From positions 130,696,001 through 130,760,000 of the forward strand of contig OX597819.1 of NCBI GenBank assembly GCA_951406725.2: a stretch of 64,000 nucleotides of DNA. Reading direction: 5' to 3'. A model generated the notes under the pieces. It did no database searches, was not told the DNA's origin, and saw only the letters and a list, made by a program, of their open reading frames with translations. The stretch comes from Octopus vulgaris (lineage: Eukaryota). The translations under genes and the position numbers were made by a program. Each line of letters opens with the position of its first letter. Position 1 is the stretch's first letter. This document shows, in pieces, positions 9,578 through 64,000 of the stretch.

Positions 9578-12500
9578 TATCTCTCAAATCCTCCCCAACA
9601 TTCCTCCCCTTCACCTCTCAAATCCCCCCCTCTGGAATGTAAAACATTCCTCCCTCCCCTTCCTCCCCTTCACCTCTCAAATCCCCCTCTCTGGAATGTT
9701 CAACATTCCTCCCTCCCCTTCCTCCCCTTCACCTCTCAAATCCCCCTCTCTGGAATGTTCAACATTCCTTCCTCCCCTTCCTCCCCTTCACCTCTCAAAT
9801 CCCACTCTCTGGAATGTTCAACATTCCTCCCACCCCTTCCGACCCTTCATCTCTGAAATCCCCCTCTCTGGAATGTTCAGCATTCCTTCCTCTTCTTCCT
9901 CCCCTTCACCTCTCAAATCCCCCTCTCTGGAATGTTCAACATTCCTCCTTCCCCTTCCGACCATTCAACTCTCAAATCCCCCTCTCTGGAATGTTCAACA
10001 TTCCTCCCTCCCCTTCCTCCACTTCATCTCTGAAATCCCCCTCTCTGGAATGTTCAACATTCCTTCCTCTCCTTCCTCCCCTTCACCTCTCAAATCCCCC
10101 TCTCTGGAATGTTCAACATTCCTTCTTCCCCTTCCGACCCTTCAACTCTCAAATCCCCCTCTCTGGAATGTTCAACATTCCTCCCTCCCCTTCCTCCCCT
10201 TCATCTCTGAAATCCCCCTCTCTGGAATGTTCAACATTCCTCCCTCCCCTTCCGACCCTTCACCTCTCAAATCCCCCTCTCTGGAATGTTCAACATTCCT
10301 CCCTCCCCTTCCTCCCCTTCATCTCTGAAATCCCCCTCTCTGGAATGTTCAACATTCCTCCTTCCACTTCCGACCCTTCAACTCTCAAATCCCCCTCTCT
10401 GGAATGTTCAACATTCCTCCCCCCTTCCTCCCATTCACCTCTCAAATCCCCCTCTCTGGAATGTTCAACATTCCTCCCTCCCCTTCTTCCCCTTCACCTC
10501 TCAAATCCCCCTCTCTGGAATGTTCAACATTCCTCCCGACCCTTCCGACCCTTCACCTCTCGAATCCCACTCTCTGGAATGTTCAACATTCCTCCCACCA
10601 CTTCCGACCCTTCATCTCTGAAATCCCCCTCTCTGGAATGTTCAGCATTCCTTCCTCTTCTTCCTCCCCTTCACCTCTCAAATCCCCCTCTCTGGAATGT
10701 TCAACATTCCTCCTTCCCCTTCCGACACATTCACCTCTCAAATCCCCCTCTCTGGAATGTTCAACATTCCTCCCTCCCCTTCCTCCACTTCATCTCTGAA
10801 ATCCCCCTCTCTGGAATATTCAGCATTCCTTCCTCTCCTTCCTCCCCTTCACCTCTCAAATCCCCCTCTCTGGAATGTTCAACATTCCTTCTTCCACTTC
10901 CGACCCTTCAACTCTCAAATCCCCCTCTCTGGAATGTTCAACATTCCTCCCACCCCTTCCTCCCCTTCATCTCAAATACCCCTCTCTGGAATGTTCAACA
11001 TTCCTCCCTCCCCATCCGACCCTTCACCTCTCAAATCCCCCTCTCTGGAATGTTCAAAATTCCTCCCTCCCCTTCCTCCACTTCATCTCTGAAATCCCCT
11101 CTCTGGAATGTTCAACATTCCTCCTTCCAATTCCGACCCTTCAACTCTCAAATCCCCCTCTCTGGAATGTTCAACATTCCTCCCTCCCCTTCCTCCCATT
11201 CACCTCTCAAATCCCCCTCTCTGGAATGTTCAACATTTCTCCCACCCCTTCCGAACCTTCAACTCTCAAATCCCCCTCTCTGGAATGTTCACCATTCCTT
11301 CCTCCACTTCCTCCTCTTCACCTCTGAAATCCCCTACATGGAATGTTCAGCATTCCATCCTCCCCTTCCTCCCCTTCACCTCTCAAATCCCCCTCTCTGG
11401 AATGTTCAACATTCGTAACGCCACTTCCTAACCTCCACCTCTCAAAGACCCCTCTCTGGAATGTTCAACACTCCAACCTCACCTCCCTCCTCTTCTCCTC
11501 TCAAAACCCCACACTAGAATGTTCAACATTCCTTCCTCCCCTTCCTCCCCTTCACCTCTGAAATCCCCCTCACTGGAATGTTCAACATTCCTCCTTCCCC
11601 TTCCGACACTTCACCTCTCAAATCCCCCTCTCTGGAAAGTTCAACATTCCTCCCTCCCCTTCCTCCCCATCACCTCTCAAATCCCCCTCTCTGGAATGTT
11701 CAACATTCCTCCTTCCGCTTCCTCCCCTTCAACTCTCAAATCCCCCTCTCTGGAATGTTCAACATTCCTCCTTCCCCTTCCGACACTTCACCTCTCAAAT
11801 CCCCCTCTCTGGAATGTTCAACATTCCTCCCTCACCTTCCTCCCATTCATCTCTCAAATCCCCCTCTCTGGAATGTTCAACATTCCTCCCTCCCCTTCCT
11901 CCCCTTCACCTCTCAAATCCCCCTCTGTGGAATGTTCAACATTCCTCATTCTCCTTCCGACACTTCATCTCTCAAATCCCCCTCTCTGGAATGTTCCACA
12001 TTCCTCCCTCCCCTTCCTCCAAATCACCTCTCAAATCCCCCTCTCTGGAATGTTCAACATTCCTCCTTCCTCTTCCTCCCCTTCACCTCTCAAATCCCCC
12101 TCTCTGGAATGTTCAACATTCCTCCCTTCCCTTCCTCCCCTTCACTTCTCAAATCCCCTCTCTGGAATGTTCAACATTCCTCCTTCCCCTTCCGACACTT
12201 CACCTCTCAAATCCCCCTCTCTTGAATGTTCAACATTCCTCCCTTCCCTTCCTCCCCATCACCTCTCAAATCCCCCTCTCTGGAATGTTCAACATTCCTT
12301 CCTCCCCTTCCTCCACTTCATCTCTGAAATCCCCCTCTCTGGAATGTTCAACATTCCTCCTTCCACTTCCGACCCTTCAACTCTCAAATCCCCCTCTCTG
12401 GAATGTTCAACATTACTCCCTCCCCTTCCTCCCCTTCACCTCTCAAATCCCCCTCTCTGGAATGTTCAACATTCCTCCCTCCCCTTCCTCCCATTCACCT

Positions 12501-15136
12501 CCCAAATCCCTCTCTTTGGAATGTTCAACATTCCTTCCTCCCCTTCCTCCCCTTTACCTCTCAAATCCCCCTCTCTGGAATGTTCAACATTCCTCCCTCC
12601 CCTTCCTCCACTTCACCTCTGAAATCCCCCTCTCTGGAATGTTCAACATTCCTCCCTCCCCTTCCTCCCCTTCACCTCTCAAATTCCCCTCTCTGGAATG
12701 CTCAACATTCCTTCCTCCCCTTCCGACTCTTCAACTCTCAAATCCCCCTCTCTGGAATGTTCAACATTCCTTCCTCCCCTTCCTCCCCTTCACCTCTCAA
12801 ATCCCACTCTCTGGAATGTTCAACATTCCTCCCACCCCTTCCGACCCTTCATCTCTGAAATCCCCCTCTCTAGAATGTTCAGCATTCCTTCCTCTTCTTC
12901 CTCCCCTTCACCTCTCAAATCCCCCTCTCTGGAATGTTCAACATTCCTCCTTCCCCTTCCTCCCCTTCAACTCTCAAATCCCCCTCTCTGGAATGTTCAA
13001 CATTCCTCCTTCCCCTTCCGACACTTCACCTCTCAAATCCCCCTCTCTGGAATGTTCAACATTCCTCCCTCCCCTTCCTCCCCATCACCTCTCAAATCCC
13101 CCTCTCTGGAATGTTCAACATTCCTTCCTCCCCTTCCTCCAGTTCATCTCTGAAATCCCCCTCTCTGGAATGTTCAACATTCCTCCTTCCACTTCCGACA
13201 CTTCAACTCTCAAATCCCCCTCTCTGGAATGTTCAACATTCCTCCCTCCCTCCCCCTCCCTCTCACCTCTGAAATCCCCCTCTCTGGAATGTTCAACATT
13301 CCTCCCATTCACCTCCCAAATCCCTCTCTCTGGAATGTTCAACATTCCTTCCTCCCCTTCCTCCCCTTCACCTCTCAAATCCCCCTCTCTGGAATGTTCA
13401 ACATTCCTTCCTCCCCTTCCTCCCCTTCACCTCTCAAATCCCCCTCTCTGGAATGTTCAACATTCCTTCCTCCCCTTCCTCCCCTTCACCTCTCAACACC
13501 CCTCTCTGGAATGTTCAACATTCCTTCCTCCCCTTCCGACTCTTCAACTCTCAAATCCCCCTCTCTGGAATGTTCAAAATTCCTCCCTCCCCTTCCTCCC
13601 CTTCACCTCTCAAATCCCCCTCTCTGGAATGTTCAACATTCCTTCCTCCCCTTCCTCCCCTTCACCTCTCAAATCCCCCTCTCTGGAATGTTCAACATTC
13701 CTTCCTCCCCTTCCTCCCCATCACCTCTGAAATCCCCCTCTCTGGAATGTTCAACATTCCTCCCTCCCCTTCCTCCCCTTCACCTCTCAAATCCCCCTCT
13801 CTGGAATGCTCAACATTCCTCCTTCCCCTTCCGACTCTTCAACTCTCAAATCCCCCTCTCTGGAATGTTCAACATTCCTTCCTCCCCTTCCTCCCCTTCA
13901 CCTCTCAAATCCCACTCTCTGGAATGTTCAACATTCCTCCCTCCCCTTCCTCCCCTTCATCTCTGAAATCCCCCTCTCTGGAATGTTCAACATTCCTCCT
14001 TCCACTTCCTCCCCTTCACCTCTCAAATCCCCCTCTCTGGAATGTTCAACATTCCATCCTCCCCTTCCTCCCCTTCACCTCTCAAATCCCCTCTCTGGAA
14101 TGTTCAACATTCCTCCCTCCCCTTCCTCCACTTCATCTCTGAAATCCCCCTCTCTGGAATGTTCAACATTCCTCCCATTCACCTCCCAAATCCCTCTCTC
14201 TGGAATGTTCAACATTCCTTCCTCCCCTTCCTCCCCTTCACCTCTCAAATCACCCTCTCTGGAATGTTCAACATTCCTTCCTCCCCTTCCTCCCCTTCAC
14301 CTCTGAAATCCCCCTCTCTGGAATGTTCAGCATTCCTTCCTCCACTTCCTCCCCTTCACCTCTCAAATCCCCCTCTCTGGAATGCTCAACATTCCTCCTT
14401 CCCCTTCCGACTCTTCAACTCTCAAATCTCCCCTTCCTCCCCTTCACCTCTGAAATCCCCCTCTCTGGAATGTTCAACATTCCTTCCTCCCCTTCATCCA
14501 CATCACCTCTCAAATCCCCCTCTCTGGAAAGTTCAACATTTCTCCCTCCCCTTCCGACATTTCACCTCTCAAATCCCCCTCTCTGGAATGTTCAACATTC
14601 CTTCCCTCCCCTTCCTCCACTTTACCTCTCAAATCCCCCTCTCTGGAATGTTCAACATTCCTCCTTCCCCTTCCTCCCCTTCACCTCTCAAATCCCCCTC
14701 TCTGGAATGTTCAACATTCCTTCCTCCCCTTCCTCCCCTTCACCTCTCAAATCCCCCTCTCTGGAATGTTCAACATTCCTTCCTCCCCTTCCTCCCCATC
14801 ACCTCTGAAATCCCCCTCTCTGGAATGTTCAACATTCCTCCATCCCCTTCCTCCCCTTCACCTCTCAAATCCCCCTCTCTGGAATGCTCAACATTCCTCC
14901 TTCCCCTTCCGACTCTTCAACTCTCAAATCTCCCCTTCCTCCCCTTCACCTCTCAAATCCCCCTCTCTGGAATGTTCAACATTCCTCCCTCCCCTTCCTC
15001 CAGTTCATCTCTGAAATCCCCCTCTCTGGAATGTTCAACATTCCTCCCTCCCCTTCCTCCACTTCATCTCTGAAATCCCCCTCTCTGGAATGTTCAACAT
15101 TCCTCCTTCCACTTCCGACCCTTCAACTCTCAAATC
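9578..15136. repeat. 59-bp tandem satellite/minisatellite, roughly 90+ copies, truncated by an assembly gap
   Basis: Unit TGGAATGTTCAACATTCCTCCCTCCCCTTCCTCCCCTTCACCTCTCAAATCCCCCTCTC (59 nt); strongly C/T-rich on the plus strand. Confidence 0.97.
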
Positions 15137-18506: not shown

Positions 18507-18787
18507 TGTACCTGCATTGTTGTATGGCTACGCCTTTGATTGCATGTTTCATTGTTGCAATGTGTGTTTTGTGTGAGAGTGCGTGGGTATTTTTACATGG
18601 CAGTGCGAGAGGAAGTGTTTATGCGTCTGTGTGTGTGTGTGTAATTGTGTATGAGTGCATCTGTGTGCATGCGAGTATGCACAAGCGTGCGTTCTCATGT
18701 TGCTCAAACATTGTGCATATATCTCTCTTTAAGTATGTATACATATGTATGTTTTTGTGTACGTATATTTGAGAATGTATATGTACA

Positions 18788-18825
<38 letters not shown>

Positions 18826-18833
18826 TGTATGTA

Positions 18834-18877
<44 letters not shown>

Positions 18878-19080
18878 CATACATACATACATACATACAT
18901 ACATACATACATAGACAGATATATGTATAAACTTATATACATATACATATACATATATATATGTATACACATTATATGCATATAAACACACACACACTCA
19001 CACATATATATAAATATATACAGTATATGCATATATACACACACACACTCATGCACATATATATGTATACACGTTATATT

Positions 19081-19276
19081 CTTTTACTTGTTTCAGTCAT
19101 TTGACTGCGGCCATGCTGGAGCACTGCCTTTAATCGAGCAAATCAACCCCAGGATTTATTCTTTGGAAGCCTAGTACTTTATTCTATCGGTCTGTTTTGC
19201 CGAACCGCTAAGTTACGGGACGTAAACACATCATCATCGGTTGTCAAGCGATGGTGGGGAGACAAACACGGACACA

Positions 19277-19363
<87 letters not shown>

Positions 19364-19508
19364 GACGGGCTTCTTTCAGTTTCTATCTATCAAATCCACT
19401 CACAAGGCTATAGTAGAAGACACACGCCCAAGGTTCCACGCAGTAGGACTGAGCCCAGAAATATGTGATTGGTTAGCAAGCTACTTACCACACAGCCACT
19501 CCTGCGCC
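19081..19508 (-). mobile_element. tRNA-derived SINE family A (GGCGCAGGAGTGGCTGTGTGG head, internal TA/TG microsatellite)
   Basis: Reverse complement of the 59875-60322 copy, with a small internal deletion. Confidence 0.9.
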
Positions 19509-20085
19509 TAAATATATATGCATATCAAAGGGAAATGGAAATTAATTAAAATTTACATTTCCAGTGGTCTAACGTGTAAAAAATTTAGTCAAAAATACTA
19601 TATATTAGTCATACGATATAGTGTATATTTAAACACATAAGGAATCCACTAAATGGGAATTCAGCACGCTAGAAAGAACAGCTAGGTTCTATAACCACAA
19701 AAATTAGGGATAAAATTCGACAGGAACGAATTGAAAAAAACGTGTTGAATTCCTATATATGCATATATATATTTATATGTATCTATACTATTTATTTATA
19801 TATGAATAAATATTTACGTCAGTAAGATAAGATTGGTATTAATAATTGTACATACTAAGTTTTGGTGCACAATTGTAGCTTACATGTATTAAATTGCTCG
19901 TGCATGCAGAAATGTATATAAGCAAATAACTATGGATGGGTATCTAACTGTTTTTGTTGCAGATGTTCGTGTGCGTATGTCTATATATACATATGCACAT
20001 ATATAAATAAATAAATATATGTGTGTGTCAGTGTGTGTATAAATACACATACGTATACACATATATTTATCTATGTATGTATATA

Positions 20086-31140: not shown

Positions 31141-31173
<33 letters not shown>

Positions 31174-31257
31174 GGTCCCGGGTTGATTCGGGGTTAACCA
31201 CAGTAAATAAGGTACTCAATACATAGCAGATTAAAATTAATTTATTATATAGAAGGA

Positions 31258-31306
31258 GCTTCTACAGGACTAGAACTGTTTCATTCAAGAGAAATCTTCA
31301 GGAAGC
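31258..31306 (-). ncRNA. Type-I hammerhead ribozyme
   Basis: GCTTC-CTGAAGA-T-TTC/tctt/GAA-T-GAA-ACAG/ttctagtc/CTGT-A-GAAGC: complete core, stems I-III, GUA cleavage triplet. Confidence 0.8.
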
Positions 31307-31359
31307 ATTCCTGAAGATTTCTCTTGAATGAAACTTCCTGAAGATTTCTCTTGAATGAA

Positions 31360-31408
31360 GCTTCCTGAAGATTTCTCTTGAATGAAACAGTTCTAGTCCT
31401 GTAGAAGC
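31360..31408 (+). ncRNA. Type-I hammerhead ribozyme (inverted copy)
   Basis: Same sequence as 31258-31306, read on the plus strand. Confidence 0.8.
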
Positions 31409-31532
31409 TCCTTCTATATAATAAATTAATATATATATATATATATATATAATAATAAATATTAGGGAATAAATCCAAATTTACAGGGAAAAAATCAGAT
31501 TTAGGATTAAATCCAATTTTATAGTAAATATT

Positions 31533-31663
31533 ATATAATATTATTAGAGACAAAACCACTATTTTGCAAAACAAACAAGGAAAGACTTAATCAATACATA
31601 AAATTTTATGTATTGAAAAAGTCTTTCCTTGTTTGTTTTGCAAAATAGTGGTTTTGTCTCTAA

Positions 31664-31674
<11 letters not shown>
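31533..31674. repeat. ~140-bp near-perfect palindrome ending a (TA)n-embedded element
   Basis: TATTAGAGACAAAACCACTATTTTGCAAAACAAACAAGGAAAGACTT..TCAATACATAAAA|TTTTATGTATTGA..AAGTCTTTCC...GTCTCTAATA. Adjacent 31451-31530 has an inverted homolog at ~59095-59175. Confidence 0.9.
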
Positions 31675-31725
<51 letters not shown>

Positions 31726-44716: not shown

Positions 44717-45180
<464 letters not shown>

Positions 45181-45182
45181 TG

Positions 45183-45234
<52 letters not shown>

Positions 45235-45476
45235 AGTATGTGTACATATGTATATGTTTTTATGTGTACATATGTATGTGTATGTATGTATAAATATATA
45301 TATATACACACACATATATGTGTGTGTATGTATGTGTGTATATGTATGTATGCATGTGTGTGCACACACATATATACAGATATATATATACATATATATA
45401 TATATTTATGTTTATGTGCATGTATCTGTATATATATATATATGTATAAATATACATACATACATACATACATACA

Positions 45477-45522
<46 letters not shown>

Positions 45523-45638
45523 CATAAATATATGTGAATTTGGTATACATCACAACTGTCCGACGAACCGGAGCGTTGAACTCTGAGCAACAGTTCTGTG
45601 ATAATTTTTCCGCTTTCATAGAAGTATATATATATAAA

Positions 45639-45928
45639 TGACGGAAACTGAAAGAGGCCTGTCGTATATATGTACATATATATATGTGTATATATATATG
45701 TATTTGTGTGTATGTTTGTGTCTGTGTTTGTCCCCCTAGCATTGCTTGACAAACGATGCTGGTGTGTTTACGTCCCCGTCACCTAGCGGTTCGGCAAAAG
45801 AGACCGATAGAATAAGTACTGGGCTTACAAAAGAATAAGTCCCGGGGTCGATTTGCTCGACTAAAAGGCGGTGCTCCAGCATGGCCGCAGTCAAATAACT
45901 GAAACAAGTAAAAGAGAGTAAAAGAGAG
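45639..45928 (+). mobile_element. SINE family A (5'-truncated)
   Basis: Body and tail match 59875-60322. Confidence 0.88.
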
Positions 45929-45972
45929 AATATATATATGTATATGTGTATGTACATATATGTATATATATA

Positions 45973-46057
<85 letters not shown>

Positions 46058-46584
46058 ATATATGTCTTTTTGTGTATGTACCTATATATATATATGGTGG
46101 GGTTGTGAAATTATCCATACAAAAAGTATATCCTGCATTTGAATATCATTGTGTATAATGTGAACACTTATCAAAATTGACAGAAAGAGGATAAAAAATC
46201 TTTGTGCATACGTCTGTGTATCGATGTATATAATACGTATATATATATATACATACATACATACGTATATATATTAATACGCATAAATATATGTAAATAC
46301 ATATGCATATTTATTTGTATTATATAGTATTATATATTTTATATTTTACATATATTAATATGTACATACTCATCCAGTTTTCTGTATATGTAAGTATATA
46401 CACGTGTACAGACATGTGTGCGCACGCACGTGTGTATGTAGACAGATAGATATATATAAGAAGGCACAGAGATAAATACATGGATAGCTAGATACCTTCT
46501 TGCGTACGTACTTACATTCATACATACATGTTTCTATCCATACATACATTCATGCATACATACATATATACATGCATCTAACAG

Positions 46585-47980: not shown

Positions 47981-48520
<540 letters not shown>

Positions 48521-48534
48521 AATATATATGACCA

Positions 48535-48904
<370 letters not shown>

Positions 48905-48907
48905 CAT

Positions 48908-49312
48908 ACTCTTTTACTCTTTTCTCTTTTACTTGTTTCAGTCATTTGACTGCGGCCATGCTGGAGCACCGCCTTTAGTCGAGCAAATCGACCCCGGGAC
49001 TTATTCTTTGTAAGCCCAGTACTTATTCTATCAGTCTCTTTTGCCGAACCGCTAAGTGACGGGGACGTAAACACACCAGCATCGTTTGTCAAGCAATGCT
49101 AGGTGGACAAACACACACACATACACATATATATATATATACATATATACGACGGGCTTCTTTCAGTTTCCGTCTACCAAATCCACTCACAAGGCATTGG
49201 TCGGCCCAGGGCTATAGCAGAAGACACTTGCCCAAGATGCCACGCAGTGGGACTGAACCCGGAACCATGTGGTTGGTTAGCAAGCTACTTACCACACAGC
49301 CACTCCTGCCCC
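48908..49312 (-). mobile_element. SINE family A, young copy
   Basis: Nearly identical to the reverse complement of 59875-60322. Confidence 0.93.
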
Positions 49313-49578
49313 TAGATATGTATATTTATTCATTTATACATATTTATTCATTTATATTTTATATGTGCACACCGGCTTTTGGTACACTCAACTATCTATG
49401 AATGCGTATTGGTTTCCACGTATGTATAAGATGTATATATAGGTATGACTACGTATATGGAATTATATAAATTTCTAGAAATTTTCAAATGTATATTTAC
49501 ATTTATGTGTATAAATAGAATATTTAATAATTAATATATATACAAATATACATCTTATATATACATACATAAATATAA

Positions 49579-49618
<40 letters not shown>

Positions 49619-50744
49619 TTAATATACATTAATATAGATTTTGTTTGCGTGTATGTGTGGCTATATACATCTGTATATGGTTATATATGTGTTTGTATGC
49701 AAATACGCTGTGAAACGCATACATTTACTTGCGTCCATAGATTTATATATACATCAACACGCACGTATTTATATACATCTATCCATGTGTATGTATGCAC
49801 GTATGTATATATCTAAGTATGTATGTGTGTATGTATGTATGTATGTATGTATGTATGTATGTATGTATGTATGTATTCGCCTTTTTCCTTGCTTGTTTGT
49901 GTGTGCCTATGTGTTTGTGTTAAAGGATTGTAGTGTATATTTATATACTCATTTAACACCCAACAGTGGTCAGCCATTCACTTCCAGTCTGCGCAGGTTC
50001 GTTTCCTTGAAAAGTTTTTTTTTGGGGGCCCATTAAGTAATTCTAATGCCAAGCCCAAAACCTGAAGGCGACCGCTTAATTTATTGATTGGAGAAGAATG
50101 AGGGACAAATGTGATTTGCAGAGAGTTCGAAAGGCACAAAAACGTACGGCATTTTTCTGAGTCCCACAAATATATATATTACTGTTTACTTTTGTATGTG
50201 AATAAATACAGGGAAAGGGGAGAAAATGGGACAAAACGACAGAGAGAGAAATAAGTATATAATGTATGTGTAAATGTGTATACATGTATTATATATAGCC
50301 CTTTTGTATATATTTCACCGTCTTACTGAGTGATATTCCTTGGTGTGTGTACTATTGCGCATTCAAGCAGCCGTTCAATACACATACAAACGCAAACATA
50401 CACACACGTAATCACTATATATATGTAAAGTATATATGTTGTATGTATACTGTGTATATATATATATATACTTTATATATTGGCCCATATATCTAACAAT
50501 AGCACCACCTATATATATATATATAGCATATATATATATATATATACACCTATATATATATATATATGTATGTATATATGTATATATATATATACTATAT
50601 ATACTGTATTCATATATATATATATATATATATATATACTATATATATATATATATATGCATAATATGCATATTTACATACAGATAGATAGATACATACA
50701 TATATGCATATATGCTTATATATATACATATATATATATGTATG

Positions 50745-50805
<61 letters not shown>

Positions 50806-50901
50806 TATATATGTGTGTGTGTGTAAGGAATCTTGTAATAAGCTGAATAATGATATACGTACATTGACAGACAGGTAGATAGATTTCATAGATATATATA
50901 C

Positions 50902-50938
<37 letters not shown>

Positions 50939-51658
50939 TATATATTGTGTATGCATATCTGTGTGTGTGTGTGTGTGAGCGCATGTGTGTTTAAATACAT
51001 GTATGTAAGTATATATGTACCTAGAAACATAGATATATATATACATATACGTATTTCTGTTCCTCTACGTGTATATGTATACAATTTTGCACATTCAGTA
51101 GGTGCATTGTATGTATATAACTACGCATAGTTGTGCATCTCCATTATATAACAATACTAATGGAGAAAAACTGGTAAGGCAGGATTTTCGTCCTTTGAAG
51201 AATTTCTTCTTCCATATACAGACGCGCGTGAGCGCACGTTTCCGCACGTGTAAGCACGAGCACCCAGAAACACACACAAGCACACACTTTCACATATTTC
51301 TATGTGTATATGTGTATATGCGTAGATGTGTGTGTGTGTATGTATGTATGTGATGTGTGTATGTATGTATGTATGTATGTATGTATGTATGTATGTATGT
51401 ATGTATGTATGTATGCATGCATGTATGTGAATATATAAAATTATGTATGCACACACAATTATGTATACATATATATAAAATTATATATATATTAATAAAT
51501 ATATATATATATATATATATATATTAATATATATATATATTAAAATATATATATTTGTATATATAGACACATATACATATATATCTACCTATATTTATGT
51601 GCGTGTGCATGCATTTACATGCATAGTTATATATATTTATATATATATATAGTTATAC

Positions 51659-51692
<34 letters not shown>

Positions 51693-51779
51693 GTAGGTCC
51701 CAGGTTGATTCGGGGTTAACCACAGTAAGTAAGGTACTCAATACATAGCAGAGTAAAATTAATTTATTATATAGAAGGA

Positions 51780-51828
51780 GCTTCTACAGGACTAGTACTG
51801 TTTCATTCAAGAGAAATCTTCAGGAAGC
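51780..51828 (-). ncRNA. Type-I hammerhead ribozyme
   Basis: AGCTTC-CTGAAGA-TTTCTCTTGAAT-GAA-ACAG/tactagtc/CTGT-A-GAAGCT. Confidence 0.8.
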
Positions 51829-52343
51829 TATTTAACAAGAATTGTATTAGCATTTATACATTTAGGCAGGTTTAAAGGAGTGGTGGTGGGGGACTTTTTG
51901 GGGGTAGGCATAGCGCAAAATATCATACTTGGGGGAGTGGTCAAGGAGTCATTGGTAAGTTAGATGAAAGAATAGATAAATAAAAAAATAAATAAAAAAA
52001 ATAAAAAAAAAAAAAAAATAAAAAAAATAAAAAATAAAAAATAAAAGAATAAAAAAATATATAAAATAAAAAAAAATAAAAAAAAAATAAATAAAATAAA
52101 TAAAATAAAATAAAAATATAAAAAATATAAAAAATATATATAAAAAATATATATATAAAAAATATATATATAAAAATATATATATATAAAAAAAAATATA
52201 TATATATAAAAAAAGGGGGGATAGAGTTATAGGTAAATGAGGAGATTCTCACTTATACCAATGCACACATGTATACGTATCTACACACACATACATACAT
52301 AACATATATATACACACACATATATATACATACATATATATAC

Positions 52344-52376
<33 letters not shown>

Positions 52377-53206
52377 CACACATACATACATATCTACATA
52401 CTCGCATACATACACCCGCCCGCATATACAAATTTATACACATGCACATGCCTATACCTGTCTACACATACACACACGTATATATGCATACACTCACTCC
52501 CATGCATGCACGCATACACACATGTATATATATATATATATATATATACCCACGACCACATATACATATATACACATAAAAAAAGTGGGAGTGAGTGTAT
52601 GCATATATACGTGTGTGTATGTGTAGACAGGTATAGTACATGTGCATGTGTATAAATTTGTATATGTGCAGATATGTATAGTATGTAGATATGTATGTAT
52701 GTGTGTATATATATGTATGTATATATATATATATGTATATATATGTATGTATATATATGTGTGTGTATATATATGTGTATGTATATGTGTGTGTAGATAC
52801 ATATACATGTGTGTATTGGTATAAGTGAGTCTCTCATTTACCTATAACTCTATCCCCCTTTTTTATATATATATTTTTATATATATATATTTTTATATAT
52901 ATATTTTTTATATATATTTTTATATATATATTTTATATTTTATATTTTTATTTTATTTTTATTTATTTTTTATTTTTTTTATTTTTTTATTTTATATATT
53001 TTTATTCTTTTATTTTATTTTTATTTTTTTATTTTTTTATTTTTTTTTTTTATTTATATTTTTTTATTTATCTATTCTTTCATCTAACTTACCAATGACT
53101 CCTTGACCACTCCCCCAAGTATGATATTTTGCTATGCCTACCCCCCCACCACCACTCCTTTAAACCTGCCTAAATGTATAAATGCTAATACAATTCTTGT
53201 TAAATA

Positions 53207-53249
53207 GCTTCCTGAAGATTTCTCTTGAATGAAACAGTACTGTAGAAAC
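53207..53249 (+). ncRNA. Minimal type-I hammerhead with palindromic stem III
   Basis: GCTTC-CTGAAGA-TTTCTCTTGAAT-GAA-ACAGTACTGT-A-GAAAC; one mismatch in stem I. Confidence 0.7.
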
Positions 53250-53448
53250 TCCTTCTATATAAATATATATATATATATATATCTTACATACATACATAAA
53301 TACATACATACACACATATGCATACATCAATGTTATATACCTATAGATACATGGGTAAATAGATGTAATAGATGAATATTTATACATATATTATATATAT
53401 ATAAATATATATATATATATACATGCATATATATATATATGTATATTC

Positions 53449-53480
<32 letters not shown>

Positions 53481-53485
53481 CTGTG

Positions 53486-53531
<46 letters not shown>

Positions 53532-53533
<2 letters not shown>

Positions 53534-53910
53534 CGCAGGTATGATCGTGTGGTAACAAGTTTGCTTTCTGACCATATCATACCGTGTTTAGTCCCACTGC
53601 GTGGCACTTTGAGCCAAGACCCACGAAAGCTTTGTGAGTGAATTTGGTAGACGCAAACTAAGAGGAACCGTCATGTGTGTGTGAGTGTTTGTGTGTGTGC
53701 GCGCATGAGTGTGTGTGTGTTCCCGACTACCACCTGACAACATGTGTCTGTTTGTTTACGTCCCAGGAGCTAGCGGGTCGGCAAAAAATAAAACGATAGA
53801 ATATGTACTCGGCTACAAAAATTACTAGGGTCGATTCGTTTGACTATAAACTTTTCAAGGCGGTGCCCCAGCATGGCTGCAACCCAAGGACTGAAACAAG
53901 TAAACGATAA
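53532..53910 (+). mobile_element. SINE family A, older diverged copy
   Basis: GGCGCAGG head through GGCGGTGCCCCAGCATGG...CTGAAACAAGTAA tail. Confidence 0.8.
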
Positions 53911-54620
53911 AATATATATATACATATACATGTATATACATATACACATATATATATATATGTATATACCTATGTATGTATGTATGTATGTATGTATGTA
54001 TGTATATACGTATGTATGTATGTATTTATGTATAGGTGTGTGCCTTGAGATGCGTGGTCTAGTCGTTAGAGCGTTGTACTCATGACTGTACGACCGAGGT
54101 TTCGATTCCTTCTCCAGGCACCAGTTTTACCTTCGTTCATCCTGCAACAGATTGCCGTTCTGCTCGGTGGAGTGTCTTGTTTCCGCAATCGCTTAGCGTC
54201 ACAGTAACCGAGGCCAACAGCAGCCTAGCGGTCCTGGGCGCTTCAAATAAACTTTCCTCTCAGTATAGGTTTCATATAGACAGATTTGAAAAACTATATT
54301 TGTGTGTGCGTGTACACCTATGTATATATGTATGTACGTATGCATGTATTTACGCATGTATCTATGTATGTGTGTGTATGTTTATGTATGTATGTATTTA
54401 TGTATGTATGTGTGTATGTATGTCACAAAGTTTATAAATGATATGCACACATACACAGAAACACCCACACATACATACACACGCACCTTACACACATATA
54501 TATATATGTGTGTGTATATATTAATGTGATATATATATGTGTGTGTGTATGTATGTACGTATGTATAATTATATATATATTTATGTATGTATGTATGTAT
54601 ATATACATATATATAAATGT

Positions 54621-54654
<34 letters not shown>

Positions 54655-54784
54655 TGATAGATAGACAGACATAGACAGATATGCCTATATATATACATAT
54701 AAATATAAAGATATGTGTGCATAAGTGTGTACAAGTATATATGTATGTGTGCACACCTGTGTATGTATGTATCTATACACGATG

Positions 54785-54938
54785 TCAAATTCCGCCGAGG
54801 TCGACTTTGCCTTTCATCCTTTCGGGGTCGATAAATTAAGTACCAGTTACGCACTGGGGTCGATGTAATCGACTTAATACCTTTGTCTGTCCTTGTTTGT
54901 CCCCTCTGTGTTTAGCCCCTTGTGGGTGGTAAAGAAAT
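54785..54938 (+). mobile_element. SINE family C (5'-truncated)
   Basis: Matches 2037-2190. Confidence 0.9.
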
Positions 54939-55505
54939 ATATACATGATGTCATAAAGCTTCCTATACACACACATACTTGCTTGCGCAAACACACACAC
55001 ACACACGCACACACACACACGCACACACATTAACACGTGTCTATAGACAAGCAGTCCGACTAACAGTAAGACAGGGCGTGAGAAAAATATCGATGTATAG
55101 AAATACATATATATATATATATATATATATGCATAAATATTTAAATATTTAGTACTGTTAAATACAATATTCAATATCACTCAATTTCGCTTGTCACTTC
55201 CAGTTCGATTTGCATGTTTTTTTAACAGTAACATGGGATCAATTTTTTTTCTTTAGCTGTGTGTGCTCGATTGGATGCATGCATGCATGTATGTATGCAT
55301 GTATATACATTTATATGTGTAGTCATGTTTTGTACACTTCCGCTCATTACGACGCAAAAAGACACGCGCTTATATATAGATATATATAATATATATATGT
55401 CTGTAAGCATAGAGAGAGATTTGCTTAAATATATTTTCATAATTCTTATTTTCTTTCTCAGTCGCGTGAATCGATACGCCGGTTTATAATTCATATACCG
55501 ATAGG

Positions 55506-55550
<45 letters not shown>

Positions 55551-55552
<2 letters not shown>

Positions 55553-55715
55553 CGCAGGAGTGGCTGTGTGGTAAGTAGCTTGCTAACCAACCACATGGTT
55601 CTGGGTTCAATCCCACTGTGTGGCATCTTGGGCAAGTGTATTCTGCTACAGCCCCGGGCCGACCAATGCCTTGTGAGTGGATTTGGTAGACGGAAACTGA
55701 AAGAAGCCTGTCGTA

Positions 55716-55784
<69 letters not shown>

Positions 55785-56012
55785 AGTATGTGTGTGTATA
55801 TGTTTGTGTGTCTGTGTTTGTCCCCTTAGCATTGCTTGACAACCGATGCTGGTGTGTGTTTACGTCCCCATCACTTAGCAGTTCGGCAAAAGAGTACGAT
55901 AGAATAAGTACTGGGCTAACAAAGAATAAGTCCAGGGTCGATTTGCTCGACTAAAGGCGGTGCTACAGCATGGCTGCAGTCAAATGACTGAAACAAGTAA
56001 AAGAGTAAAAAG
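55551..56012 (+). mobile_element. SINE family A, full length
   Basis: A box TGGCTGTGTGG, B box GGGTTCAATCCC, internal (TA)n, tail GTAAAAGA repeats. Confidence 0.93.
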
Positions 56013-56023
56013 TATATATATGA

Positions 56024-58447
56024 ATGACAAGATGTGAACGAGGACAGGCGAGGTCCCTCCTGAACGTCATCAACACCCTGTACATGGAGCAGGTAATACT
56101 CCAACCAACCAGGGCAGGTAACACACTGGATCTCTGCTTCACAAATGACATGGATCTCATCCATAATGTGAAAGTGACACCGACACTACTCTCGGATCAC
56201 AACATGATAGAGCTGACCATGTACGGGCCAAAAGAGAGCACGGACATGCAGCCTACAAGAAACCCTCAAAATCTTTCCAGCTTGAACTACCATAAGGCAA
56301 ACTGGAAACAAATTGAGAAAGAGATCCTCAAACAAAACTGGCCTAAATGTCTCTCCTCGCCAGACATCGACGTGAAACTTCAACAATTCATGTCTGTAAT
56401 GCAAGCCATATGCTACAAATGTGTCCCAGAGAGAAAGGCCACTGTACACAAGAACAAAATCCCCAGAGAGAGGAAAATTTTAATGAGACGGCGTACGAAA
56501 TTTTCAAATCGCCTAAACAAACAGATTGAAAGCAGTGAAAAGTCCCGCCTAAAAATAAAAATAAAACTGTTGGAAATCGAAAAATGTCTGCAACTCTCCC
56601 ATGAAAAAGAAAGAGCAGACAAAGAAGCCTGGGCTATAGAAAACATAAAATCTAACCCCAGAGCTTTCTACAGGTATGCCAAAGAAACAGCTACAGTGCA
56701 CTGTAGAATAGGGCCACTCCTCGAAAAGGATGGCACACTTACAGGAAAACCAATGAGGGTAAGTGAAATACTGAATGAGCAATTCAAGAGTGTTTTCACT
56801 CCACCCCTTGGGCATCTCCAAATCACCAATCCAACTGACTTTTTTACCACTGCAGATATAAAATCAGAGGCGGCGACGATAGATTACATCGATATAAAGG
56901 AAGACGATGTAACCAAGGCTATAGATGAAATGAAAACAGACTCAGCTACTGGCCCCGATGGATTCCCGGCAATCCTCCTAAAAGCATGTAAGAGAGTCCT
57001 AGCAAGACCACTGCAGTTCCTCTTTCAGAGCTTCCTTGCAGCTGGCAAACTTCCAGGAAAACTGAAGGAAGGTAAAATATGCCCCATTCATAAAGGAGGT
57101 AGCAGAGCGGAAGCCAAGAACTATAGACCTATCTCTCTGACCTCACACATCAGCAAGGTCATGGAACGAATAGTCAGAAGGAAGCTGATCACCTTCCTTG
57201 AAGAGAATGACTTGCTGCCCGACACCCAACATGGTTTCCGACCAGGGAGAAGCTGTTTAACTCAGCTCCTACAACACTATGACTGGGTGCTGAAACGGCT
57301 GCTCAACCACTCAAATGTGGAAGTGATATATCTCGACTTTGCAAAGGCCTTTGATAAAGTCGATCATGGAATGATATGTCACAAACTGCGTGATCTCAAC
57401 ATAGTTGGAAAAATGGGAGAATGGCTTCATGACTTTCTGAAGGATAGAAGTCAGGTGGTAGTAGCCAATGGGGCCACCTCCATTAACACACAAATAGTGA
57501 GCGGTGTTCCGCAGGGCACTGTTCTGGGACCACTACTGTTCATAATGGCCCTCTCAGACATGCCCTCAGCCACGCAGAGAGCCACGATCACAAGTTATGC
57601 AGATGATACAAAAGTTTCACAGGAAATACAGAACCCTGAGGACACTAAACACCTGCAATGTGAGCTGGACGAAATATACAAGTGGGCTGAAAAGAATAGC
57701 ATGCAGTTCAATGCTGGAAAGTTTCAAGCTTTATACTATCAGTATGCAAAACTGAATGCAATACCCAATGAATACACTGGACCCGGAGGGATTGCAATCC
57801 CAGAGGCACAATCAGTGCGTGACCTGGGTATTCACATGAGTGATGACGCGACCTTTCATGTACATGTTGCTAAACTGACAATGAAATGTAGACGGCTGAC
57901 TGGATGGATTCTTAGAACCTTTAGAACAAGAGAACAAGAAACCATGATGGTCCTCTGGAAGACACTTGTCCTAAGCCACTTTGACTATTGCTCTCAGCTA
58001 TGGTCACCATCCAGTGTCAAGTTGATCACAGAACTTGAGGCGATCCAACGAAGCTACACAAAGAAGATAGCCTCTATGCAGAATGTAAGCTACTGGGAAA
58101 GACTCAAGAGATTAAAATTATATTCCCTGGAGCGTAGGCGGGAAAGATATGCCATAATATACATCTGGAAGATCCTGGAGGGAAGTGTCCTGAACTTTGG
58201 CATCGAGAGTTACGCAAATGCCAGAACTGGGCGCCACTGCGTGGTGCCTAGGACTCCAAACCTGCCTTCAAGATGTAGGACAAGATTCTGTGATAGCCTG
58301 GGCTTCCGAGGCCCACAGCTCTTCAATATCCTCCCGAAGAACCTGAGAGACCTGCATGGGGTGGATACAGATGTCTTTAAAATAAGCTGGATCTCTTCCT
58401 GTCAGGTGTCCCAGATGAACCAACTTCACGGCAGGAGGGACAGATGA
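56024..58447 (+). CDS. LINE ORF2: C-terminal part of the APE endonuclease plus complete reverse transcriptase
   Basis: PTRAGNTLDL...SDH (APE end), GPDG, NYRPISLTS, QHGFRPGRSC, YLDFAKAFDKVDH, GVPQGTVLGPLLF and YADD. 807 open codons, with a probable 1-nt frameshift near 58385. Confidence 0.92.
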   Translation: MTRCERGQARSLLNVINTLYMEQVILQPTRAGNTLDLCFTNDMDLIHNVKVTPTLLSDHNMIELTMYGPKESTDMQPTRNPQNLSSLNYHKANWKQIEKEILKQNWPKCLSSPDIDVKLQQFMSVMQAICYKCVPERKATVHKNKIPRERKILMRRRTKFSNRLNKQIESSEKSRLKIKIKLLEIEKCLQLSHEKERADKEAWAIENIKSNPRAFYRYAKETATVHCRIGPLLEKDGTLTGKPMRVSEILNEQFKSVFTPPLGHLQITNPTDFFTTADIKSEAATIDYIDIKEDDVTKAIDEMKTDSATGPDGFPAILLKACKRVLARPLQFLFQSFLAAGKLPGKLKEGKICPIHKGGSRAEAKNYRPISLTSHISKVMERIVRRKLITFLEENDLLPDTQHGFRPGRSCLTQLLQHYDWVLKRLLNHSNVEVIYLDFAKAFDKVDHGMICHKLRDLNIVGKMGEWLHDFLKDRSQVVVANGATSINTQIVSGVPQGTVLGPLLFIMALSDMPSATQRATITSYADDTKVSQEIQNPEDTKHLQCELDEIYKWAEKNSMQFNAGKFQALYYQYAKLNAIPNEYTGPGGIAIPEAQSVRDLGIHMSDDATFHVHVAKLTMKCRRLTGWILRTFRTREQETMMVLWKTLVLSHFDYCSQLWSPSSVKLITELEAIQRSYTKKIASMQNVSYWERLKRLKLYSLERRRERYAIIYIWKILEGSVLNFGIESYANARTGRHCVVPRTPNLPSRCRTRFCDSLGFRGPQLFNILPKNLRDLHGVDTDVFKISWISSCQVSQMNQLHGRRDR

Positions 58448-58810: not shown

Positions 58811-59170
58811 ATTGCTTTGTCTTTTCAATTTTCTGTTACCGTTCGGAACCCGACAAACGCATCGTCCTGTAACATATGTATAGTGAGTTCTACCCCAGGT
58901 TATTATTATCCCAATGCCTAAGCGATATATATATACGTTTTTATTATTTTTTTTTTGCAACTTACTTAATCATCGGTATATTATTGTTATTTTAATTTTA
59001 ATATTTCTATTATATGTAATTTTCTAGATGCTGTAATTTAATTATTCATTTTGAATTGGCAAAAGGTGGGGTTTTTCTAATTTATATATATATATTATAT
59101 TGTGTGAAATTTGATTTAGTATTTCTAAATTGAATTTTTCCCTGTAAGTTAGGATTAATATTCCCTCAAA

Positions 59171-59207
<37 letters not shown>

Positions 59208-59725: not shown

Positions 59726-59874
59726 GACAAATTTTTTTTTATATATATATATATATATCACAGTTGTCAATTGTGGAACATGACTGTCACTACTGTTACA
59801 TAATCCCGATGATTGTGTAACACATGAAAGTACTAGTTTTATCACAATAATTATATATTCTATTATCAAACATA

Positions 59875-60036
59875 GGCGCAGGAGTGGCTGTGTGGTAAGT
59901 AGCTTGCTAACCAACCACATGGTTCCGGGTTCAGTCCCACTGCGTGGCATCTTGGGCAAGTGTCTTCTGCTATAGCCCCGGGCCGACCAATGCCTTGTGA
60001 GTGGATTTGGTAGGCGGAAACTGAAAGAAGCCTGTC

Positions 60037-60104
<68 letters not shown>

Positions 60105-60322
60105 GTGTGTTTGTGTGTCTGAGTTTGTCCTCCTAGCATTGCTTGACAACCGATGCTGGTGTGTTTACGTCCCCGTCACTTAGCGGTTCGGCAAAAGAGA
60201 CCGATAGAATAAGCACTGGGCTTACAAAGAATAAGTCCCGGGGTCGATTTGCTCGACTAAAGGCGGTGCTCCAGCATGGCCGCAGTCAAAATGACTGAAA
60301 CAAGTAAAAGAGTAAAAAGAGT
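59875..60322 (+). mobile_element. SINE family A, full length, young
   Basis: Head GGCGCAGGAGTGGCTGTGTGGTAAG, B box GGGTTCAGTCCC, internal (TA)n, LINE-like tail. Confidence 0.93.
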
Positions 60323-60443
60323 ATAATACTGTAAAAAATAATACGTGAAAATCAGACTCTGTTGGAATTTCATTGATTGATATATTCTTCTATACACAAT
60401 CATACACACTCGGATATACATACATATACATACATATACATAC

Positions 60444-62700: not shown

Positions 62701-63504
62701 ATCTTCTGTGACTGGAGATATTTAATTAAATTCAATTTACTGCTGATCGATATGTTTATTAACCGCATTCATTACAGTAGAATCTAAATTTTGAACATCA
62801 TCTTCGAGTGACCCGTCCAACTTAGACGTCGCCGTCGATGCACGGATCATTACTTAAAATAGCTTCGTCACATTTTGATTCAGTTTTCTTGCCAAGAACA
62901 TCAGAGACGACTGCGATGACGAACGTAGCGACAGGACGACGACGACGACCGCAGTAACAGTAAAGATGAGTTTGGGAGGTTTTGATTTTCTTTTTAAAGG
63001 GAATTGTTTGTGTTTTTGTTTTCCTCTTTTCCTATATTTTTTCTTGTGTTCTTCCCCCTTGCTCCATTTCCTTTTGCTCGCTGCCTCTGCTTTAAAATTG
63101 GATTGCGAGTGTTTCGGCATAAGGAGCAGTCAAGAACTGGGCTCGATTTAGTCGGCAACACACCTCTCCTTACCGAGGGCCTACATTCAAGATCATTGCT
63201 ATTATAAAGTAGTCGTGATTTGTAGAAGACTGAATGGCTGAGAGATTCGCTTCGCTGTCAAAAGATACGGAGTTCGATTCCACTATGTAGTGGCATCTTG
63301 TGAAAATGCCTTCAGTTATGGTTTCAAACTGGACACACGGAATCTGAATGAAATGCCATACAAGAGGCCAATCTTATTACGCTTATCATGTCTTGGCCAA
63401 GTGTCTTCAGCTATATCCCCAGGCAGGTCTAACTGGAGTTGGTAGACGGAAACTGAAAGAAGCCCATCGTATAGATAGATAGATTTATATATATATATAT
63501 ATAT

Positions 63505-63720
63505 ATTCTTTTATTCTTTTACTTGTACCAGTCATCTGACTGCAGCCATGTTGGTGCACCGCCTTAAAGGGTTTTGGTCGAAGAAATCAACCCACAGGAC
63601 TTATTCTTTGTAAACCTAGTACTTATTCTATCAGTCTCTTTTACCGAACCGTTATGTTACGGGGAGATAAACACACCACCATTGGTTGTGAAGCGGTGAC
63701 GAAGGACAAACATACGCAAA
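63505..63720 (-). mobile_element. SINE family A 3' half
   Basis: Tail match. Confidence 0.8.
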
Positions 63721-63845
63721 GAAACAAGCACATACATACATATGTATACATATATACATATACATACATACACACACACACACATACATACATACATACA
63801 TACATACATACATACATACATACATACATACATACATACATACAT

Positions 63846-64000
63846 ACTCTTTACTCTTTACTATTTTACTTGTTTCAGTCATTTGACTGCGGCCATGTTG
63901 GAGCACCGCCTTTAGTCGAGTAAATCAACCCCGGAACTTATTCTTTGTAAGCCCAGTACTAATTCTATCGGTCTCTTTTGCCGAACCGCTAAGTGACGGG
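63846..64000 (-). mobile_element. SINE family A 3' end, continuing beyond the window
   Basis: Tail match. Confidence 0.9.

Follow-up and report, generated by a model that had tools for sequence, protein, structure and literature searches.

Introduction

Insertions of Penelope-like elements (PLEs) that are inverted, truncated at the 5′ end, and equipped with a tail on one side only have already been described in print (PMC8557442, Fig. 2; PMC3846280). How PLEs form such inverted insertions was named as an open question by Craig et al. 2021 (PMC8557442). Pairs of hammerhead motifs on opposite strands, separated by 100-700 bp, were reported in Schistosoma by Cervera and de la Pena 2014 (PMC4209133). 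The hammerheads of the Hydra clade of PLEs, collected in File S2 of PMC8557442, have a short stem II, a short palindromic stem III, and the same core spacing as the motifs described below. Self-priming of a folded-back antisense RNA has been proposed as the origin of head-to-head palindromes (Arkhipova et al. 2013, PMC3846280). In experiments in vitro on PAc, an anole element, both target strands were reported to be cut and extended, and reverse transcription was reported to start at two internal sites that bound the tail (PMC11167929). Non-LTR retrozymes are composed of units of 150-400 nt that repeat head to tail, with a type I hammerhead in every unit (PMC7229834), and the link between PLEs and retrozymes has so far been argued from co-occurrence and trees (preprint 10.64898/2026.07.22.740005).

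Here we analyze a fold-back element in a 64,000-nucleotide stretch of the Octopus vulgaris genome (contig OX597819.1, positions 130,696,001 to 130,760,000), which we call the window. The original prediction from the letters of the window had placed the element in a non-coding ribozyme retroelement family. Its sequence proved instead to form the 3′ terminus of an element of ~5.1-5.55 kb, which has an open reading frame (ORF) for a reverse transcriptase (RT) and a putative endonuclease. The window copy is almost certainly a 5′-truncated, inverted insertion of a Hydra-clade PLE. The overall explanation that we find best, and very likely correct, is that of a truncated Hydra-clade PLE with a tail-less second arm, which likely resulted from priming on both cut strands of the (TA)n target. 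The window copy itself is dead, has lost the ORF, and has an ordinary layout that is already known. The family to which it belongs is young and protein-coding and includes thousands of near-identical copies. These copies, with their two allele classes and fixed ends, enable the family to discriminate between models of inversion.

Structure of the fold-back

The window contains the expected 1.5-kb fold-back with ~700-bp arms and a spacer that had been put at ~85 bp and measures 83 bp. Local alignment within the window positions the inverted arms at 51767-52502 and 52586-53262, with 661 matches, 13 mismatches, and 65 gap columns, which corresponds to 98% identity over the aligned part. The gap columns are mostly bases absent from the right arm. 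The spacer (52503-52585, minus strand) contains main-arm sequence without a partner and ~3 junction bases (52583-52585) that match neither arm. As predicted, both ends of the element are embedded in (TA)n, which extends over 51660-51691 on the left flank and over 53263-53282 on the right flank (no strand for either); a target-site duplication is unreadable within the TA run at the right flank. The region is simple-repeat DNA, and the longest ATG-started frame in the element has 147 codons, in agreement with the anticipated absence of an ORF.

The main, tailed arm (51692-52582, minus strand) represents the last ~890 nt of the element. It comprises a microsatellite- and T-rich 3′ UTR, truncated on its 5′ side at about 52582, followed by a hammerhead motif and a tail. 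The ~70-nt tail (51692-51762, minus strand) is unpaired in the arm alignment and belongs to this arm only. Its outer end at 51692 is the putative first start site of reverse transcription, and the start codon of the ORF is located 45 nt after the tail end in full-length copies. The type I hammerhead motif of the main arm (51779-51829, minus strand), identified from its core and stem pattern, is the family-typical copy, and 51829 presumably corresponds to the transcription start in full-length elements. The inverted tail-less arm, which spans 677 bp in the arm alignment (52586-53262, plus strand), carries private deletions and ends at the second fixed 3′ site of the family. It contains a second, mutated hammerhead motif (53206-53250, plus strand), which is distinguished by a 6-nt deletion in loop III and a G>A change at 53248.

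A second, independent insertion of the same PLE family is present in the window as a mini-palindrome at 31170-31430 (no strand). It consists of a tail and a hammerhead followed by a hammerhead without a tail, joined at the 5′ edge of stem I. The junction contains two extra ~27-bp duplications of the core, and the loop III allele is the other one of the two. Adjoining this insertion, in TA-rich DNA, is a separate near-perfect palindrome of ~170 bp (31520-31687, 94%), with related sequence near 59070-59204 and downstream in locus L154; it is possibly a mini fold-back of another TA-targeting element. Further repeats of the window include a 5.5-kb C/T-rich tandem array (9601-15136) with a 59-bp unit and ~78 copies in its main block. 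A 234-bp inverted pair (49121-49354 and 55509-55742, 91%) of another dispersed repeat flanks the fold-back at 6 kb, and additional copies of this repeat are located at 18716-19525, 44882-46096, 59873-60326, and 63470-64000.

The parent element

The original prediction had suggested searching the genome with positions 51692-51960 for linkage to a Penelope ORF. Searching the 2.8-Gb assembly (227 contigs) with these 269 bases identified 936 first-look candidates, and the 40 that were scored are all 99-100% identical to the query. The best genomic copies, fetched from 30 loci, all stop at the same base, and the TA run that adjoins their tail end is the (TA)n target of the Hydra clade. Twenty of the 30 copies, chosen mostly for long matches, were extended. 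An inverted hammerhead is located upstream in 18 of them, and the remaining two run unbroken through ~3 kb of microsatellite-rich DNA into DNA coding for RT and endonuclease, which establishes the suggested linkage. A search with the coding DNA yielded 30 ORF-anchored loci, ten of which have a hammerhead just upstream of the ORF. The full unit measures 5.1-5.55 kb from hammerhead to hammerhead and is ordered as hammerhead and tail, a 713-residue RT-endonuclease ORF, a ~3-kb 3′ UTR, and again hammerhead and tail. One natural copy has the 713-codon frame open; the full frame was present in 1 of 16 fetched ORF starts, with one more cut by the edge of its locus.

The predicted structure of the 713-residue protein has a pLDDT of 92, and its top matches in the PDB are telomerase RTs (Foldseek E 6e-9), in line with the telomerase-related RT that characterizes endonuclease-bearing (EN+) PLEs. 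All the Hydra-clade motifs of PMC8557442, followed motif by motif and by eye in the alignment of its supplement, are present in the ORF: DKT, YRDD, CxCX5C, CxxC, CxH, and RWR in place of RWK. The putative endonuclease forms the C-terminus, where CxxC and CxH are positioned around its E and N. Scoring of 8,000 candidates identified 1,086 homologues of the protein; the 120 listed are 37-52% identical to it, and nearly all are unnamed. The GIY-YIG endonuclease family PF01541 is assigned to 2 of these 120, and the C-terminal motifs were aligned with the Hydra endonuclease by eye; these motifs and the two homologues point to the endonuclease assignment. In the 713-residue protein itself, Pfam returned two sub-threshold, unrelated matches only, and a PDB sequence search with a 92-protein profile of the ORF gave nothing relevant.

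The family shares further traits with EN+ PLEs, namely pseudo-LTRs formed from partial tandems, an optional inverted 5′-truncated copy, and a one-sided tail. The motif and stems of a type I hammerhead are present in the pseudo-LTR, in a layout similar to those of File S2 of PMC8557442. At 5.1-5.55 kb, the element does not have the short length of the Hydra clade (generally <3 kb), which is given in PMC8557442 as a general trait and not as a diagnostic one, and the excess is the 3′ UTR. Hydra-1_Obim was ruled out as the identity of the family because its protein and hammerhead, as given in the supplement of PMC8557442, are different, and four short probes of the family had no match in that supplement. 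No paper on the family was found in the open full-text literature, and a catalogue such as Repbase or Dfam may already include it.

In most ORF copies, a run of C just before the linker is one base short of the frame (for example, L085:6070-6080). The short run was counted in about three quarters of the first 100 of 178 ORF copies, and the longer run is also in the minority in short-read contigs (10-33% of the depth, three runs). Since the in-frame C run is in the minority, a frameshifted master may be mobilized in trans, or the site may be recoded. None of the public runs is on record as RNA; contigs of four, guessed to be of RNA, cover the hammerhead and tail and, sparsely, the ORF, and transcript starts, ends, strand, level, and editing are not readable from contigs. 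An older Hydra-like family is represented by L046:7967-9884 (minus strand), with a 638-codon open stretch that includes DKT and YRDD. It has 1,052 first-look candidates with copies 92-97% identical, and the PLE family of the window has inserted into its 3′ UTR. In a search of the 1.5 kb that follow the query at 14 loci, of which several were misoriented or truncated, no hammerhead of this older family was detected.

Abundance and ends of the family

The genome contains 3,911 exact copies of the 27-nt hammerhead core and 2,886 exact tail motifs. The reversed control pattern of the core has 0 matches; therefore, the motif is not a product of chance. Ordered by position, the first 100 cores fall into 58 clusters, of which 39 are outward-facing pairs, 0 are inward-facing pairs, and 19 contain a single core; several of these 19 turned out to be imperfect palindromes once fetched. 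The two cores are separated by 40 bases or fewer in 21 of the 39 pairs. The inverted pair is the majority outcome of insertion in the family. The core-to-core distance is different at every locus, from hundreds of bases to >8 kb. Therefore, the fold-back is not a moving unit.

Exactly one tail is present in each of the 35 long pairs examined. Among 56 pairs (16 unselected long pairs, 19 selected long pairs, and 21 mini-palindromes), the tailed arm ends at the same base, equivalent to 51692 of the window, in 55, and the tail-less arm ends at most 5 nt from one site, ~70 nt upstream, also in 55. Single tailed and single tail-less insertions are both present in the genome. Short-read contigs from three public runs have loose ends at the tail end (three runs), the tail-less end (three), and the stem I edge (two).

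Origin of the inverted arms

Substitutions shared by the two arms of a locus exceed those in shuffled pairings. The 16 unselected long pairs have 46 shared substitutions versus 11.7 after shuffling (0 of 2000 shuffles reach 46), the 21 minis have 11 versus 6.3 (0 of 2000), and the 19 selected pairs have 2 versus 0.19 (6 of 2000). The loop III allele is concordant between the arms in 55 of 56 pairs, L097 being discordant. Therefore, the two arms of a locus derive from a single template or a single source. The tail-less arm exceeds the tailed one in length in 6 of the 16 unselected long pairs and in 3 of the 19 selected ones, clearly so in L049, L126, L127, and L128; arm lengths are approximate at junctions obscured by simple repeats (gaps of 499-6777 nt in L119, L125, L131, and L132). 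Copy-back of the tailed cDNA would be unable to yield a tail-less arm of greater length. In the window copy, the tailed arm is longer (cDNA arms of ~890 nt tailed and ~680 nt tail-less). The observations suggest that the arms of each locus were copied separately from the same RNA.

Priming from two strands is probably the route to the inversion. The endonuclease would cut both strands of the (TA)n target, and the RT would start at two fixed internal sites of the RNA, as measured in vitro for PAc of the anole. Each cDNA would stop independently, and the cDNA ends would be joined head to head with little or no homology. Both cDNAs would be copied from one RNA molecule; alternatively, their similarity could stem from the activity of only one source locus in the cell concerned, or from conversion of one arm by the other at a later time. 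Two-strand priming as a source of PLE inversions was not found in the open full-text literature.

The same element could have been inverted by another route, in which the cDNA or an antisense RNA primes itself by folding back, so that the second arm is a copy of the first. We consider this unlikely. Self-priming, which is in print for head-to-head palindromes (PMC3846280), accounts for the sharing of alleles between arms without further assumptions, and copy-back predicts a longer tailed arm such as that of the window copy. Small products resembling snap-back exist as well: nine loci with a single core are folded back on stem I, and among 20 fetched loci that start close to the predicted scissile bond, 11 fold back on a local hairpin. 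However, the tail-less arm reaches further upstream in 9 of the 35 long pairs, which a copy of the tailed cDNA cannot do, and a copy of the tail-less cDNA cannot generate the tail. From the single tail-less insertions, it is evident that the second site can prime by itself. The shortened mini junction is present in both mirror orientations relative to the tail among 41 fetched minis (6 and 10 cases; the second batch of 20 was partly picked for uneven junctions), which also argues against self-priming. The family sample favors two-strand priming, in line with the in vitro study of a PLE (PMC11167929).

Stem I edge and mini-palindromes

About half of the 3,911 cores (1,947) retain their natural upstream bases. 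At 737 loci, mini-palindromes of ~200 bp are joined at the first bases of hammerhead stem I. The first 50 junctions listed include 16 that are perfect, 16 that are one base shorter, and 18 of other forms, and this variation indicates that mini-palindromes arise anew. The shortened junctions could also be read as one-base deletions at the centre of a palindrome.

Non-inverted junctions with the whole stem carry an extra G before stem I in 24 of 29 cases (counted by hand in the first 100 of 139 rows; a duplicated locus accounts for two of the 24). At the position of this G, the element template has T and the target has T or A. One of the insertions (L234) begins with the extra G and continues into the ORF. 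In L1 insertions, copying of the mRNA cap is recognized by an additional G at the 5′ junction (PMC11702581). We therefore favor, as the likely interpretation, that the G originates from an RNA cap and that the first base of hammerhead stem I is the transcription start in the family. Reverse transcription from the upstream repeat would then run off the capped 5′ end after ~135 nt and give rise to the 737 mini-palindromes. Alternatively, the extra G could have been added by snapping back over one base of stem I; longer products of this kind are few, namely the nine loci mentioned above. The open full-text literature yielded no capped start at stem I for PLEs. In locus L176 (5323-6461), the sequence starts with the tail, proceeds as far as the stem I edge, continues at ORF position ~740, reaches the stem I edge again, and is then inverted, which looks like template jumping at the 5′ end of the RNA.

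Hammerhead motifs

The two outward-facing hammerhead cores that had been predicted, one on each strand, are present. The left motif (51829-51779, minus strand) has its core from 51823 and a predicted scissile bond between 51785 and 51784, and the right motif (53206-53250, plus strand) has its core from 53212 and a predicted scissile bond after 53244. The left hammerhead is formed by a 6-bp stem I, a 3-bp stem II, and a 4-bp stem III with a near-palindromic 8-nt loop, and its core has a U after A9 and before G12, as in Hydra-clade motifs. Stem III of the right copy is reduced to a palindrome, as the original prediction had noted: the perfect 10-nt palindrome was left by the 6-nt deletion of loop III, which has one exact match genome-wide, that of the window. 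The G>A change at 53248 breaks one pair of stem I. The hammerhead folds of the left and right copies score -7.3 and +2.1 kcal/mol, respectively.

The proposed search with hammerhead models was negative: Rfam reported no hammerhead family at E<=1 on 48000-57000 or at E<=10 on 51692-51960, and its scans of the element gave low-complexity microRNA matches only. Folding of the isolated motif gave no excess stability over shuffled sequences (z 0.28). Because Rfam and the shuffled folding provide no signal, the ribozyme call is based on the pattern of core and stems, which agrees with the Hydra-clade hammerheads that PMC8557442 tabulates in its File S2. The earlier attribution to a Penelope-type motif, in elements that insert inverted, agrees with the hammerheads and layouts given in that paper. 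Across 112 arms, which are near-identical and were chosen by exact core, the stems have scattered changes and one common loop III variant; stems that differ around the same core are found across the families in File S2 of PMC8557442.

In the folded full-length transcript, 50 of 51 hammerhead bases of the plus strand and 45 of 51 of the minus strand are paired with the far arm, and the computed hairpin has about -920 to -940 kcal/mol. A fold-back transcript would, according to this model, bury the ribozyme in a duplex, and the predicted self-cleaved 3′ end is unlikely for the window copy. The idea that the transcript would be a long dsRNA and a substrate of ADAR is structurally plausible from the modeled fold. 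If transcribed, the hundreds of fold-back loci, with lengths reaching several kb, would supply perfect dsRNA in large amounts.

Pairing of stem III between two copies was calculated at -15.2 kcal/mol, and at -13.4 kcal/mol for the right-arm variant, which fits the dimer model for PLE hammerheads (PMC4209133). Despite this possible dimer pairing, the two motifs of the window element are on opposite strands. Insertions that start near the predicted scissile bond were found at 38 loci versus 23 at a control site 7-13 bases away, and the former number is inflated by the local hairpin, on which 11 of 20 fetched loci are folded back, with five being plain TA joins. Eight palindromes are joined at or near the scissile bond, versus 737 at the stem I edge. 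As a genomic footprint of cleavage, insertions at the scissile bond are thus in no clear excess over the control site. Because few insertions start or join at the scissile bond, most of the inserted cDNA was probably copied from uncut RNA. The hammerhead is probably a weak ribozyme that depends on dimerization or protein.

Tandem arrays

Exact junctions between the tail and the ORF occur 50 times in the genome, and 35 of them are in two tandem arrays. One array is built from 277-bp units (L171:1813-5713, C2:64.63 Mb) and the other from 333-bp units (L172:1422-9268, C5:37.48 Mb), which span the hammerhead, the tail, and the start of the ORF. The units begin 44 or 94 bases ahead of the core, reach about 57 or 64 bases into the ORF, and contain one hammerhead each. 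Both arrays are folded back and end at the two fixed sites of the family in (TA)n. The 277-bp array has 5 and 7 full units, and the 333-bp array has 19 and 2 full units and one garbled unit. Each array junction is known from one locus only. Back-splicing was rejected as the source of the array junctions, since GT/AG ends are absent at both. The arrays appear to have been made from the repeat-ORF junction, and reverse transcription around a circular or multimeric RNA would best explain them. They represent a concrete case of retrozyme-like repeats derived from the repeat-ORF junction of a named PLE. We propose tentatively, and with slightly less than even confidence, that the family is a genomic record of PLE integration and retrozyme birth, in which a capped RNA, priming on two strands, head-to-head joining, and the copying of short circular or multimeric RNAs into arrays would each play a part.

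A reading of the window element itself as a retrozyme-like fold-back, non-coding, capped by hammerheads, mobile as a unit, and transcribed into a self-cleaved dsRNA hairpin, is very improbable. The window copy does lack an ORF and has two hammerhead motifs, and non-coding derivatives of the family exist in the form of the two tandem arrays and the 737 mini-palindromes. Nevertheless, no two loci agree in junction and length, the collinearity of the sequence with the 3′ UTR of a coding element shows that the family is not a non-coding one, and the hammerhead would be buried in the duplex. Starts at the cut site (38 loci) are not clearly above the control (23 loci). Retrozymes are head-to-tail repeats and not inverted pairs (PMC7229834), and head-to-tail repeats of 150-400 nt were found in the two arrays only and not in the window element. 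The preferred assignment of the window copy thus remains that of a truncated, inverted PLE.

Integrity of the assembly

Palindromes are error-prone in long-read assembly. The right arm lacks 18 bases in a ~210-nt unique block, compared to 0-4 private deletions in other tail-less arms; therefore, some of its private changes may be errors. At most 53% of the sampled words of the right arm are present in any public run, and its 6-nt deletion is not listed in contigs of four further runs on a family copy, contigs being prone to drop rare variants. However, an assembly or chimeric-read origin of the inverted arm is very improbable, since the arm ends at the family-wide tail-less site, unlike a random chimera, the same fixed ends occur in short-read contigs of public runs, and the layout is common to 39 of 58 sampled clusters. 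The loose ends in the short-read contigs make it unlikely that the architecture is a long-read artefact, an argument that does not extend to every private change of the right arm.

Discussion

The octopus family can be compared to the Hydra-clade PLEs Hydra-1_Obim, Penelope-13_HM, and Penelope-1_SK described in PMC8557442. As in these elements, a single ORF of ~700 residues encodes an RT followed by a predicted GIY-YIG-type endonuclease, with DKT, RWK-like, CxCX5C, CxxC, and CxH motifs, the targets are (TA)n, and a type I hammerhead with the same core spacing is located near the 3′ end. Penelope-13_HM is listed with an inverted 5′-truncated copy, as in the window, and the natural stem III of Penelope-1_SK is equivalent to the short palindromic stem III of the right copy. 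The family differs from the Hydra-clade set of that paper by its length of 5.1-5.55 kb, with a ~3-kb microsatellite-rich 3′ UTR, whereas Hydra-clade PLEs are generally <3 kb. It also differs by its tail of ~70 nt, compared to 30-40 bp, and by its thousands of near-identical copies.

Head-to-head repeats, a one-sided tail, and palindromes at junctions are common to the octopus family and to EN-bearing PLEs (PMC3846280, PMC4209133). Self-priming is the mechanism proposed in PMC3846280, whereas the evidence presented here favors two primed strands on sense RNA. The closest mechanistic likeness is to PAc, a Poseidon element of Anolis (Frangieh et al. 2024, PMC11167929), which has two start sites bounding the tail, similar to those inferred here, uncut RNA as the main template, and an AT-rich target. 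PAc belongs to another clade, and its ORF begins inside the hammerhead, in contrast to ~130 nt after the hammerhead in the octopus family. Inverted joints, a capped start at stem I, and tandem arrays are not treated in the accessible text of the PAc paper.

Non-LTR retrozymes (PMC7229834; 10.64898/2026.07.22.740005) have a type I hammerhead and no ORF, as does the window copy. They are head-to-tail arrays, whereas the window element is an inverted pair and part of a coding element (PMC7229834). It is the 277- and 333-bp arrays of the family that fit retrozymes in size and layout (PMC7229834; 10.64898/2026.07.22.740005).
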